NCBI RefSeq assembly: GCF_003334765.1
Contig: NZ_QOWT01000008.1
DNA: 64,000 bases
Direction: 5' to 3' (one strand)
Source of the DNA: Escherichia coli
GTDB taxonomy: Bacteria; Pseudomonadota; Gammaproteobacteria; Enterobacterales; Enterobacteriaceae
Shown here: piece by piece, positions 13,228 to 60,759 of the stretch
Layout: every line of letters starts with the position of its first letter
Position numbering within the stretch: the stretch's first letter is position 1
The notes under the pieces: generated by a model
Seen by the model: the letters and a program-made list of their open reading frames with translations, nothing else
What the model was told of the DNA's origin: nothing
Databases searched by the model: none
Position numbers and translations under genes: made by a program

Positions 13228-16200
13228 TTATTCCGGGCGCGGCTTCAGCGGGAAGCGGCGGCGCACCAGCACAAAGAACAGCGGCACGAAGTAAATAGCC
13301 AGAATAGTGGCCGAAATCATCCCGCCCATTACGCCAGTACCCACCGCATGCTGACCACCGGAACCGGCACCCGTGCTGGTTGCCATTGGCAATACGCCGA
13401 AGATAAATGCCAGCGAGGTCATCAGAATCGGGCGTAAACGCTGACGGCAGGCGTGGAGCGTCGCTTCAAACAGGTCGTGGCCTTTTTGGTTCATCTCGTT
13501 AGCAAACTCGACGATCAGGATGGCGTTTTTCGCCGATAAACCAATGACCGTTAACAGGCCCACCTGGAAGTAAACGTCGTTTTCCAGCCCGCGCATCCAG
13601 GTTGCCAGCAGCGCGCCGATTACCCCCAGCGGCACGACCAGCATTACCGAGAACGGCACCGACCAGCTTTCATACAACGCAGCCAGACACAGGAATACCA
13701 CCAGCAAGGAAATGGCGTACAGCGCCGGAGCCTGCGCGCCGGAAAGCCGCTCCTGATACGACATCGCCGTCCACTCCAGACCAAAGCCGTTTGGCAGCTG
13801 CTTCACTAACGATTCCATAATATCCATCGCCGTACCGGTACTGACCCCCGGTGCGGCTTCCCCAACAATCTCAACCGCAGAATAACCGTTATAGCGTTCC
13901 AGACGCGGCGAGCCTGTTTCCCAGCGTGAGGTCGCGAAAGCAGAGAAGGGCACCATGCCGCCATCTTTATTTCGGACATACCAGAGATTGATGTCATCTG
14001 GCAGCATGCGATACGGCGCAGCTGCCTGCACATAGACTTTCTTCACGCGACCGCGATCCATAAAGTCATTCACATAGCTCGAACCCCAGGCGGTTTGCAG
14101 TGTGTCGTTAATATCGTCGATAGCAACGCCCAGCGCCTGAGCTTTACGCTGGTCGATATCAATCTGCAACTGCGGACTGTCGTCGAGGCCGTTATGGCGC
14201 ACACGGGTTAGCTCCGGGTTTTCCGCCGCCAGCGCCAGCAACTGATTACTTGCTGCCATCAGCGCATCGTGACCCGCTCCAGCGTGGTCCTGCAACTCCA
14301 TATCAAAACCTGCAGAACTACCAAGACCGCTAATTGCTGGCGGGCTGCTGGCGATAACGCGAGCTTCTTTAATTTGGTTAAACGCCTTCGTTGCACGCTC
14401 GATAATGGCAAACGAGGTGCCGGTCTTACTGTCGCGTTCGCTCCAGTCTTTCAGGCGGATAAACATTCGCGCCACGTTTTGCCCGTTACCCCCAGGGCCA
14501 GAACCAACGGTGGCAAACACCGACATGATGTTGTCTTTTTCATGGGTGAAGTAGTATTTCTCGATTTGCTCAACGACTTTCAGGGTCTGTTGTTGCGTTG
14601 AACCGCTGGGCAACTGTACCGAGGTAGTAAACATGCCACGGTCTTCCAGCGGTAAGAACGACGTCGGCAAACGCAGGAACAGGAACACCATGCCGCCAAG
14701 CAGCAGGACATAAATCACAATCCAGCGCAGGCTACGGTGGAGAATTTTCGCCACCCCTTTTTCGTAGCGTTCGGCGTTGCGGTTAAACATCTGGTTAAAC
14801 CAGGCAAAAAAGCCTTTTTGCCCATGATGCTCACCTTTTTTCAGTGGCTTAAGTAGTGTGGCACACAGAGCCGGAGTGAGGATCATCGCTACCAGTACTG
14901 ACAGCACCATCGCCGCAACAATGGTAATAGAGAACTGGCGATAGATGGCACCGGTGGTGCCGCCGAAGAAGGCCATTGGTACAAATACCGCCGAAAGAAC
15001 CATCGCAATCCCGACCAGTGCCCCCTGGATCTGCCCCATCGATTTACGTGTGGCTTCGCGAGGAGTGAGTCCTTCCTCACTCATAATACGTTCGACGTTT
15101 TCCACCACCACGATGGCGTCATCCACCAGCAGACCGATCGCCAGCACCATCGCGAACATGGTTAAGGTGTTGACGCTGTAACCGAAGGCGTAAAGTACGG
15201 AGAAGGTTCCCATCAACACCACCGGCACGGCGATAGTGGGTATCAGCGTGGCGCGGAAGTTTTGCAGGAACAGATACATAACGAGGAAAACCAGAGCGAT
15301 AGCTTCCAGCAGCGTTTTCACCACGTCTTCAATGGAGGCTTTAACAAACGAGGTGGTTTCATACGCCACCTTGTATTCCAGTCCATGCGGGAAATACTGC
15401 GCCAGCTCGTCGAGACGATTGAGCACCAGCTCCGCTGTCGCCATTTCGTTAGCGCCGGAGGCCAGTTTTACCCCCAGCCCGGAGGCTGGCTTACCATTGA
15501 AGCGGCTAAGATAATCGTATTTCTCCGCCCCCATTTCGACGGTGGCGACATCGCCCAGCCTTACCTCTGAGCCGTCCTGATTGACCCGCAAGGTGATATC
15601 GCGGAACTGTTCTGGTGTTTGCAGCAGTGACTGGGCGTTAATGGTGGCGTTGAGCGCCTGCTTATCGACGGAAGGTGTACCACCAAGTTGCCCAACCGCA
15701 ATCTGCGCGTTCTGTGACTCAATGGCATCAGTGACATCTTTAGCCGTCATCTGGAAACTGTTGAGTTTCGCCGGGTCCAGCCAGATACGCATGGAATATT
15801 GCGAACCATAGGCATCGATATCCCCGACGCCATTCACGCGGCTTAACGGGTCCTGAATATTACTGGCAACATAATCAGCAATATCCTGTTTATCCATCGA
15901 ACCATCGGTAGAGACGAAGGCAATGGTCAGAATGTTGGTATCGCCGGTTTTACGCACCGTCACGCCCTGATTTTGCACCGCCTGCGGTAACTTTCGCATG
16001 GCTGATTGCAGCTGGTTTTGTACTTGCTGCACGGCTTCGTCCGGATCGGTGCCTGCTTTAAAACTTAAAGTGACAGATGCCTGACCGGTGCCACTGCTCT
16101 GAGATGACATATACATGAGATTATCGAGGCCGGTCATATTTTGCTCGATAACCTGGGTCACGGTGTTTTCCAGCGTCTGGGCCGATGCGCCGGGATAGTT

Positions 16201-16341
16201 AGCGGTCACTCGCACATTCGGTGGCGCGAGATCGGGGTATTGTTCAACGGGCAATGAAAAAATCGCCAGGGTACCTGTCAGACACAACAGGATTGCCAGC
16301 ACCCAGGCAAAAATGGGGCGATCAATAAAGAAATTCGCCAT
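13228..16341 (-). CDS. acrD: RND-family aminoglycoside/multidrug efflux pump AcrD
   Basis: 1037-aa reverse ORF, 12-TM RND transporter; recognised AcrD. Confidence 0.9.
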
Positions 16342-16411
16342 TAAAAGAGGACCTCGTGTTTCTGCGTATCGTTGTAGGCTTGACTTGCTTCACTGTAGCG
16401 GCAAGGTACGA

Positions 16412-16429
16412 GCCAATCGTGGAGAAAAA
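16412..16429 (-). promoter_or_regulatory. Candidate BaeR binding box upstream of acrD
   Basis: Reverse strand reads TTTTTCTCCACGATTGGC, matching the BaeR consensus TTTTTCTCCATDATTGGC, about 70-90 bp upstream of the acrD ATG. Confidence 0.5.
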
Positions 16430-16504
16430 AAGGAGTTAATGTAAATTATCATGCCCTTTTATACTGAACCTTAAGTGCAAGTATTCTTTGGTCAGTAGGA
16501 GGCA

Positions 16505-18205
16505 TTACATTAACTGACTTTCCTCACCCTCCGCAGAGCGAAAGCTAATACTCACTAACGTGCCGCCGCCGGAAGGTTGTGAAAAAGTCAGCGTCCCACC
16601 TAGCCGTTCCGCGCGTTCGCGCATGATATTCAGACCATAATGACCTTCGGGTTCTTTCGGTTCACCGATACCAATCCCGTTATCACGGATATAAACCGTG
16701 TGATTGCCGTCCGGCGCGGTGACGCAACTGACGGCGATTTCGCTGGCGTTGGCGTGCTTCATCGCATTCAGCACCGCTTCGCGAATAATTTGCAACAAAT
16801 GCACCTGCATTTGCGCATCCAGTGCCAGGGTTGGCAGACGGCAGTCGAGGGTCAGTTTGGCGCTGGTTTGATTTTGTAACGTATCCAGCATTTCCCTCAA
16901 TGCGGAGGGGAGATCCGCCTGCTGCAGCGTCAGGCGGAAAGTAGTCAACAGCTCGCGTAACTGCCGATAAGCATCATTCAACGCCTGGGAAAAATCGGCC
17001 ATGATACTTTGTGCGGTGGCGTTATCTTCCGGTATCGAACGCTTCAGTAACGTCAACTGGATACGTAAGTAAGAAAGTACCTGAGCCAGCGAGTCGTGCA
17101 ATTCGCGGGCGATGGTCGCACGTTCTTCCATCAACAATAATTGCTGAAAATGCTTCTGCGCCTGATTAAAGTACAAACCGCGTCCCAGCATCGACGAAAC
17201 GCTGTTAAGCAGCGGTTCTGATGATGAAACGTGACTATTTTGCCAGTGCAGTTCGCCGTAAACCGTCTCTTGCATTGTCACCGGTAAAATCTGCATCGGC
17301 AATTCCGGGTTTGGTTGCCCTTCGCTAATCCGCCAGTTTTCACCGACATTTAACTCCAGATATTCAGCCGCTTCATTGTCGCGAACAATCTGCAAAATAT
17401 GGCGGAAACAATGCACATCAATCTGGCTAGTGTTCAGCGCCTGCGAACACTGATACAACACCTCCAGACGACGCTTGGCCTCGTGGAGATCGCGGGTCTT
17501 TTCTTCTACTGACGCTTCCAGCGAACGGTACAATTTATGCAGCTCGCTCGACATCTGGTTAAAGGTTTTTGCAAGCAGACCAAGCTCATTCGGCAGGTTG
17601 GTATCCAGCGGCGGCGAGTCGAACTGCCCGTGTTCAATACGCTGACTGGCGGTAACCAGCTGATTCAGCGGGGCAACCACCTGATGGCGTATGCGGCGCA
17701 AAGTAAAAAAGACCAGCGTGAAAATACCGATGCCGCCAGCCAGGGAAATCGCCACCACCAGCAGCATTTTGCGTTCAGCGTAGTGCTGTAAAGCCAGTAC
17801 GAACAGGTCTATCTGATTAACATAATTATTAATATTGGCCTGATACCACGGCAAATCGCCCTTGCTGAGCCGATTATTCATCTCCAGCCAGTTGGCATTC
17901 AGATGCGCATAGCGAGTTTTTACTGCTTCTGGCACATACCAGACGTTGAGGTTGGTTAATACCGGTGAATGCAGTGCCTGCTGAAATAACTGGCGATGTG
18001 CATTGAGTTGTGGACTGCCACTTTGCAAGTCGTAGCCCAGGCGGTAACTCTGCATACGCAGCGATCCGGCAATATTGATAGCCTCAGCGTCGCGCAAACT
18101 GCTCGCCAGAGTTAGCAGAGCGATACCCGTGGAAAGAATCGACAGCAGCACAATGTAAAAAAAGGCCCGGGCCAGACTGGCCGAGACGGGTCGTTTAACA
18201 ATCAC
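16505..18205 (-). CDS. narQ: Nitrate/nitrite sensor histidine kinase NarQ
   Basis: 566 codons if initiated at GTG 18203-18205 (MIVKRPVSASLARAFF...); an in-frame ATG at 18220 would add 5 residues; HAMP and HisKA_3/HATPase regions recognisable. Confidence 0.85.
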   Translation of the reverse strand: MIVKRPVSASLARAFFYIVLLSILSTGIALLTLASSLRDAEAINIAGSLRMQSYRLGYDLQSGSPQLNAHRQLFQQALHSPVLTNLNVWYVPEAVKTRYAHLNANWLEMNNRLSKGDLPWYQANINNYVNQIDLFVLALQHYAERKMLLVVAISLAGGIGIFTLVFFTLRRIRHQVVAPLNQLVTASQRIEHGQFDSPPLDTNLPNELGLLAKTFNQMSSELHKLYRSLEASVEEKTRDLHEAKRRLEVLYQCSQALNTSQIDVHCFRHILQIVRDNEAAEYLELNVGENWRISEGQPNPELPMQILPVTMQETVYGELHWQNSHVSSSEPLLNSVSSMLGRGLYFNQAQKHFQQLLLMEERATIARELHDSLAQVLSYLRIQLTLLKRSIPEDNATAQSIMADFSQALNDAYRQLRELLTTFRLTLQQADLPSALREMLDTLQNQTSAKLTLDCRLPTLALDAQMQVHLLQIIREAVLNAMKHANASEIAVSCVTAPDGNHTVYIRDNGIGIGEPKEPEGHYGLNIMRERAERLGGTLTFSQPSGGGTLVSISFRSAEGEESQLM

Positions 18206-18410
18206 ACGCGTCTTCTCCACAAAAAATCATTAATGTTCCAGTTCGCTGAAACGCAATTTAGTCAGTGATGGGATTATTTGATCTGCCACAGTTTATAGCG
18301 AAATAGTTACTTATTCTGGGCACATGAACATTGCCGATTCCCCTGTAAGTCGGGTAATAACAACACTCATATAAAGAATAAGGTTTTTACAACCAAAAAA
18401 GAAGGTCGTT

Positions 18411-59907: not shown

Positions 59908-60759
59908 ATGAGTAGTTTGTTGTTGTTTAACGATAAGAGTAGGGCACTGCAGGCGGATATCGTCGCCGTGCAGTCGCAGGTGGTTTACGGCAGCGTGGGC
60001 AACAGCATTGCCGTGCCTGCTATCAAACAGAACGGCCTGAATGTCTTTGCCGTGCCGACGGTATTGCTGAGCAATACGCCGCATTATGACACTTTCTACG
60101 GTGGTGCGATTCCGGACGAATGGTTTAGCGGCTATTTGCGTGCGCTTCAGGAGCGTGATGCGCTGCGCCAACTTCGTGCTGTAACCACGGGCTATATGGG
60201 AACGGCATCGCAAATCAAAATCCTTGCCGAGTGGCTGACTGCGCTACGCAAAGACCATCCTGACCTATTGATCATGGTCGATCCGGTGATTGGCGATATT
60301 GATAGCGGAATTTATGTCAAACCTGACCTTCCCGAAGCGTATCGACAATATTTACTGCCGCTGGCGCAGGGAATTACCCCCAATATCTTTGAGTTGGAAA
60401 TCCTGACCGGTAAAAATTGCCGCGATCTCGACAGTGCCATTGCTGCCGCAAAAAGTCTGCTTTCAGACACATTAAAATGGGTGGTGGTTACCAGCGCCTC
60501 CGGTAATGAAGAAAATCAGGAGATGCAGGTTGTGGTGGTCACTGCCGACAGCGTGAATGTCATTTCCCATTCACGGGTAAAAACCGACCTGAAAGGGACT
60601 GGCGACCTGTTTTGTGCTCAGCTCATCAGTGGCTTGCTGAAAGGGAAGGCGTTAACCGATGCAGTGCACCGAGCGGGGTTGCGCGTACTGGAAGTGATGC
60701 GCTACACCCAGCAGCATGAGAGCGATGAATTGATTTTGCCGCCGCTGGCGGAAGCATAA
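59908..60759 (+). CDS. pdxK: Pyridoxal/pyridoxine/pyridoxamine kinase PdxK
   Basis: 283-aa ribokinase-superfamily ORF; recognised PdxK. Confidence 0.9.

Follow-up and report, generated by a model that had tools for sequence, protein, structure and literature searches.

The core Bae regulon consists of spy, mdtA, and acrD. According to the literature, acrD is induced by BaeR, and a sequence upstream of this gene is listed as one of four reported BaeR sites. Passages in PMC3915751 and PMC3799227 attribute the BaeR box 5'-TTTTTCTCCATDATTGGC-3' to Nishino et al. 2005, and the second of these papers also attributes a shorter alternative box, TCTNCANAA, to Yamamoto et al. 2008. In Erwinia amylovora, BaeR shifts an acrD upstream fragment in EMSA, and BaeR overexpression raises acrD by approximately 4-fold. 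The main contrary datum to a BaeR operator at acrD comes from a ChIP-exo and RNA-seq study of E. coli MG1655 in 5% ethanol, which found BaeR peaks at spy and mdtA and none at acrD; acrD also lay outside the BaeR iModulon, and the authors call its regulation indirect. We give this negative result limited weight because a single inducer, ethanol, was used and because acrD is the weakest member of the regulon. Induction of AcrD and MdtABC by BaeSR contributes to resistance, both intrinsic and adaptive, against beta-lactams, novobiocin, aminoglycosides, bile salts, and metals. The acrD operator thus belongs to a clinically relevant circuit, and both this circuit and the site have already been described.

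BaeR (PDB code: 4b09) is a regulator of the OmpR/PhoB family with a winged-helix DNA-binding domain, which matches those of PhoB, AdeR, CpxR, and OmpR and is nearest to PhoB and AdeR among solved structures. Over the whole protein, AdeR is not the closest homologue of BaeR, as MtrA and RegX3 score higher. Two regulators of this family are of particular use for comparison. AdeR of Acinetobacter binds AAGTGTGGAG-N-AAGTGTGGAG, of which the complementary strand reads CTCCACACTT-N-CTCCACACTT. The footprint of DzrR (Dickeya/Burkholderia) is TTCTCCATCATATCTCCATATT, also given as CGGTTCTCCATCATATCTCCATATT, with the units TTCTCCATCAT-ATCTCCATATT. Both are activators of RND pumps, and both sites are CTCCA direct repeats with an 11-bp period. 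A further point of reference is PhoB, which acts at its pho boxes by the class II mode of the OmpR/PhoB family, in which tandem direct repeats take the place of the -35 element.

The locus examined here lies in a window of 64,000 nucleotides of E. coli DNA, by which we mean the whole stretch that was analysed. Three features define its setting:

13228-16341, reverse strand: acrD coding sequence, an RND permease and the regulated gene, placed from the open reading frame list and from the RefSeq annotation of identical E. coli DNA.
16352-16355, reverse strand: GAGG, the Shine-Dalgarno sequence of acrD, read directly.
16505-18220, reverse strand: narQ open reading frame, the upstream neighbour of acrD on the same strand, with the annotated start inside the frame.

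The ATG of acrD stands at 16341 in the open reading frame list, and the narQ-acrD intergenic region is exactly 16342-16504, or 163 bp. Its sequence is the same as that of E. coli K-12 MG1655. A 563-nt query over the region found matches, annotated as narQ and acrD, in 5425 of 5426 complete E. coli genomes. The GAGGT that includes the Shine-Dalgarno sequence is kept in the Enterobacteriaceae acrD upstream regions that were compared.

A first-pass annotation, made from the sequence alone, had proposed a BaeR box in this region, and its reading could be reproduced letter by letter:

16412-16429, reverse strand: TTTTTCTCCACGATTGGC, the published 18-mer BaeR box of the Nishino-type consensus, at approximately -44 to -27 of the putative promoter described below.

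Its edges are 70 nt (proximal) and 88 nt (distal) from the ATG, in agreement with the proposed distance of 70-90 bp upstream of acrD. The consensus given in that annotation, TTTTTCTCCATDATTGGC, was also correct, being quoted verbatim in PMC3915751 and PMC3799227. The box agrees with this consensus at 17 of 18 positions, the sole mismatch being a C for T at position 11. The "near-perfect" match is partly circular because TTTTTCTCCATDATTGGC is the column-wise majority of three E. coli sites, namely spy, mdtA, and acrD itself. It is the same locus and the same 18 nucleotides as the published acrD site. The comparison with the spy and mdtA boxes that had been proposed as a check was carried out on the K-12 promoters, which were read directly and give TTTTTCTCCATAATTGGC for spy and TTTTTCTCCCTTATTGGC for mdtA; a core is common to the spy, mdtA, and acrD promoters. 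Within this set, acrD and spy agree at 16 of 18 positions. When the spy 18-mer was searched in the 64-kb window with at most two mismatches, the acrD box was the sole match, and none of 100 shuffled sequences gave a match. The agreement with spy alone is far beyond chance. With the consensus and at most three mismatches, the acrD box was again the sole match in the window, for which 0.19 matches are expected by chance. The alternative that T-rich intergenic sequence happens to resemble a short and degenerate consensus could draw on this expectation of 0.19 and on the partial derivation of the consensus from the acrD site, but it is refuted by the empty spy shuffles and, above all, by the conservation over 57 species inside unconserved DNA described in the following.

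For a phylogenetic footprint, we gathered 80 loci, with one genome per species, whose products are related to the N-terminal 400 residues of AcrD. Of these, 57 are acrD orthologues with 75-100% identity, extending from Escherichia to Yersinia, Serratia, Erwinia, Pectobacterium, Hafnia, and Rahnella, and the remaining 23, AcrB-like paralogues with 62-65% identity, served as controls. The upstream regions were registered without gaps on TTCTCC. The registration brought out a conserved segment:

16415-16445, reverse strand: TTTACATTAACTCCTTTTTTTCTCCACGATT, a 31-bp block with the consensus TTTACAyTwTCTCCTnnnTTTCTCCACGwTT.

This block is nearly invariant among the 57 Enterobacterales orthologues, in upstream DNA that otherwise cannot be aligned. 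In 56 of 58 regions upstream of acrD, no more than three of its 28 specified positions are mismatched, whereas all 23 upstream regions of the AcrB-like paralogues have at least 11 mismatches, that is, the block is absent from them. The core TTTCTCCACGwTT follows the same distribution, occurring upstream of acrD in about 55 of the 57 species and missing upstream of the paralogues. The information content is approximately 2 bits per column in the block and 0.1-0.3 bits in the flanks. Mean pairwise identity falls from 0.86 within the block to 0.37 over the 17 nt that follow, and to 0.28-0.29 at greater distance. Conservation at the orthologous targets, together with the listing of the acrD site in the literature, supports the link from BaeSR to acrD that the first-pass annotation had drawn; the induction itself is taken from the literature.

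The core of the block is a direct repeat, TCTCC-N6-TCTCCA, with a period of 11 bp, as would be expected where a dimer of the OmpR/PhoB family overlaps a weak -35 element. With the E. coli variant included, the repeat is written (A/T)CTCC-N6-TCTCCA, and both units are conserved among the species compared. Together with a third element upstream, the parts of the block are as follows:

16420-16425, reverse strand: TCTCCA, the proximal half-site, at approximately -40 to -35.
16431-16436, reverse strand: ACTCCT, the distal half-site, 11 bp upstream of the proximal one, at approximately -51 to -46.
16440-16445, reverse strand: TTTACA, at approximately -60 to -55, found in 54 of 57 species and the most conserved element.

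The proximal half-site reads TCTCCA in 50 of the 57 species and TCTTCA in four. The same hexamer occurs in the spy box and is the positional equivalent of the conserved CCTCCA of mdtA. The shorter box of the Yamamoto type, TCTNCANAA, fits the acrD proximal unit, TCTCCACGA, with one mismatch. The distal half-site reads TCTCC in 45 species and TCTTC in ten, and takes the form TCTCCT in other genera. Its first position, 16436, is T in 56 of 57 species, and the window and K-12 have an A on the reverse strand, giving ACTCC. This A allele is present in 5337 of 5402 E. coli genomes, and the T is found at the equivalent position in the GTDB representative E. coli and in E. albertii; the A at 16436 is a derived allele carried by nearly all E. 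coli genomes. This departure of the E. coli distal unit from the TCTCC seen across genera counts against the operator model. As a hypothesis only, the derived A could weaken the occupancy of the site by BaeR and explain the missing acrD peak in ChIP-exo, which would offer a testable reason for the older reports of binding versus the negative ChIP-exo result.

The TTTACA element is separated from the distal unit by 9 bp, not 11 bp, and is not explained by a model of two units. Candidate roles for it are those of a third BaeR-type unit, of a lone CpxR half-site (GTAAA) on the other strand, or of an A/T-rich upstream contact of RNA polymerase. A second factor, such as CpxR, may bind this invariant element.

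Compared with the whole block, the published 18-mer takes in the T-rich spacer, the proximal unit, and the 9 nt that follow this unit, and it leaves out the distal repeat and the TTTACA block. Its first 15 nt are conserved across genera, and its 3' GGC occurs in only five of the 57 species. The 18-mer is the right site, but it appears to be part of the operator only, the functional unit judged from the alignment being larger and shifted upstream. The acrD BaeR site was already known, and nothing in the feature itself is new. The added value is modest and lies in a more precise placement of the operator, with two half-sites, a conserved upstream block, and a -10 element at a fixed distance. The comparative data also distinguish the bases under selection in the published 18-mer, which make up only part of it.

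A BaeR motif for acrD of E. amylovora, TTCTTCACGATTACTGGC, was given in PMC3915751, where it seems to have been aligned to the E. coli 18-mer in a register shifted by 3 nt. The alignment across genera matches TTCTyCACGATT to positions 4-15 of the E. coli box, and this is the same physical site as the E. amylovora motif. Four Erwinia species in the sample, among which E. amylovora is not included, have the full TTTACA...TCTCCACGATT block, at approximately 173-320 nt upstream of acrD.

Downstream of the block, a second element stands at a constant distance:

16392-16397, reverse strand: TACAGT, a putative -10 element of the TAnAGT type, 17 nt after the block.

A TAnAGT-type hexamer follows the block after exactly 17 variable nucleotides in 55 of the 57 species, as TAAAGT (21 species), TACAGT (19, including the window), TAGAGT (9), TACATT (3), or TAAGGT (3). 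Between this hexamer and the ATG, the spacing ranges over 44-313 nt among the species. A rigid module of block and hexamer combined with a freely varying leader is characteristic of an activator site joined to a -10 element. It would imply a start site near 16385 and a 5' UTR of approximately 44 nt. The hexamer at the -35 position, ACGATT, is unlike TTGACA. A consensus scan for sigma-70 promoters over 16200-16700 found none, and a TSS atlas compiled under non-inducing conditions places no start between narQ and acrD. These two negative results fit a silent, activator-dependent promoter and give no positive support to the one proposed here. The -10 element, the start site, and the dimer geometry at acrD are put forward from conservation and by analogy with the regulator family.

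Taking these data together, we consider that BaeR controls the acrD promoter through the 31-bp block, which we infer to represent the operator in full, and that a dimer of phosphorylated BaeR on the two units activates acrD, with a probability of roughly 0.88. Members of the OmpR/PhoB family bind tandem direct repeats head-to-tail. The mechanism would begin with the sensing of envelope stress, such as indole, copper, zinc, tungstate, or flavonoids, by BaeS. Phosphorylated BaeR, as a winged-helix regulator of this family, would then occupy the two units as a head-to-tail dimer, whose centre would fall near -43 and which would overlap the position where a -35 hexamer would lie. In this position it could stand in for the -35 element and, in the manner of PhoB at pho boxes, recruit sigma-70 RNA polymerase to the TACAGT -10 element of a promoter that is otherwise silent. 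The outcome would be induction of AcrD, a pump whose partners are AcrA and TolC. The likeness to PhoB-type promoters includes the two direct units with an 11-bp period, and it would extend to their end at the putative -35 position and to the conserved, putative -10 element that is not accompanied by a -35 consensus. The half-sites differ, being of the CTGTCAT type for PhoB and TCTCCA at acrD, and the acrD geometry is deduced rather than observed. The resemblance to the AdeR and DzrR sites, which belong to other regulators in other organisms, supports the tandem model by analogy and does not establish membership.

The other promoters of the core regulon were compared in the same way. For mdtA, eight MdtA-like loci were examined, seven of which are orthologues with 59-88% protein identity. 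The eighth, with 62% identity, lacks the mdtA promoter block and was left out as a probable paralogue. In K-12 and the seven orthologue loci, the conserved elements of the mdtA promoter are TTyCATAwTT-CCTCCATTTTT, comprising two units 11 bp apart. The proximal CCTCCA is followed after exactly 22 nt by TAAACT(AGTATCATT), and the spacing is the same as at acrD, where TCTCCA is followed after exactly 22 nt by TAnAGT. The E. coli mdtA 18-mer, TTTTTCTCCCTTATTGGC, sits within the 22-nt spacer (positions 446-463 of the K-12 locus, L001). At this position other genera have CCGCTG..., ACGGCC..., or CCACTG..., and TTTTTCTCCCTTATTGGC is not conserved among the loci compared. Conserved sequence is found on both sides of it, as TTyCATAwTT-CCTCCATTTTT lies directly upstream and TAAACTAGTATCATT begins exactly 22 nt past CCTCCA. 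From this arrangement, the register of the textbook mdtA box may differ by about 10 bp from that of the conserved operator.

The spy footprint covers three genera only, Escherichia, Salmonella, and Citrobacter, and its homologue list is dominated by Salmonella. The spy box is conserved in these genera as TTTTTCT(C/T)CA(T/C)AATTGGC. A second TCTCCA unit lies 22 bp upstream, its Citrobacter form, TCTCCACGATT, being the same as the acrD proximal unit, and a further pair, TCTTCATAATC-TCTGCAAAATC, is found still further upstream. In all three genera the TCTyCA units have 11- and 22-bp spacing. The recurring element of the acrD, mdtA, and spy promoters, as read from these alignments, is the TCTyCA half-site with an 11-bp period, and the Yamamoto-type box corresponds to this repeated half-site. 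It is possible, although we propose it only tentatively, that in the natural BaeR operator TCTyCA units are repeated in tandem every 11 bp, placed 22 nt before a -10 element TAnA(G/C)T at acrD and mdtA, and that the 18-mer is specific to E. coli and partly mis-registered. Bearing on this are the mdtA 18-mer, which lies in a non-conserved spacer, the acrD 18-mer, which misses the distal unit and TTTACA, and the derived A at 16436 in the E. coli distal unit. Full-text literature searches on a BaeR direct repeat, the BaeR box, and the start site returned nothing relevant to this arrangement, and publication in journals outside the search is possible.

Among the alternatives to a BaeR operator at acrD, the one that survives best, although we regard it as improbable, is that BaeR acts on acrD only indirectly in E. 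coli and that CpxR or another OmpR-family regulator binds the block, whose resemblance to the spy and mdtA boxes would then be no sign of BaeR occupancy. It would account for the ChIP-exo study, with neither a peak nor iModulon membership for acrD, although that study used one inducer. CpxR has been reported to influence acrD, but its effect on acrD and mdt is described as strictly BaeR-dependent, with overexpression of CpxR alone reported to be ineffective, and in E. amylovora CpxR changes acrD expression 1.5-fold versus 3.8-fold for BaeR. The block does contain a CpxR half-site, GTAAA, at 16441-16445 on the forward strand; it is the complement of TTTAC in the conserved TTTACA element and the only GTAAA in the intergenic region. 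A tandem CpxR box, GTAAA-N5-GTAAA with at most two mismatches, was not found in 16342-16504. The shift of E. amylovora acrD upstream DNA by BaeR also stands against this alternative, as does the recurrence of TCTyCA units and of the 22-nt spacing to the -10 element at mdtA, in the autoregulated bae operon. Over the whole window, the tandem CpxR pattern at the same threshold has 60 matches against 41.5 expected, a number reached by one of 100 shuffled sequences.

Still less probable is the alternative that the block is primarily a 3' element of narQ, consisting of a terminator hairpin and a U-tract, and that its similarity to a BaeR box is incidental. The RNA from 16525 to 16410 is predicted to fold into a long hairpin (-28.1 kcal/mol, z = -2.9), in which the stop-codon region of narQ (GUUAAUGUAAUGCC) is paired to GGCAU...UACAUUAAC, located about 45 nt further downstream, and a U7 tract between the two half-sites comes after the hairpin. 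The block, however, is near-universal, while no more than about 15 of the 57 species have narQ directly next to acrD; because it is retained with acrD whichever gene lies upstream, it is not a narQ 3' element. Moreover, conservation falls on the TCTCC units and TTTACA and not on the stem partners, and a terminator scan over 16200-16700 found none. This alternative is largely refuted, and the BaeR operator of the acrD promoter is retained as the explanation of the block. The hairpin at 16410-16525 on the reverse strand may be a narQ terminator that overlaps the acrD operator in E. coli. A scan of 16250-16600 against Rfam at E <= 1 gave no match to any family.

Two minor observations concern the remainder of the window. 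A search for the tandem TCTCC-N6-TCTCCA with at most one mismatch gave one extra match, TCTCCTGATTTTCTTCA, at 60507-60523 on the reverse strand with one mismatch. It falls within coding sequence (the cysP region, by mapping to K-12 coordinates), and we judge it to be probably a chance occurrence, as 0.54 matches are expected per window. The sole entry for acrD in the TSS tables of Kim et al. 2012 is a weak start with three reads that lies inside narQ, 624 nt upstream of the acrD ATG, corresponding to approximately 16965 on the reverse strand of the window. It suggests low-level read-through or internal initiation under non-inducing conditions.
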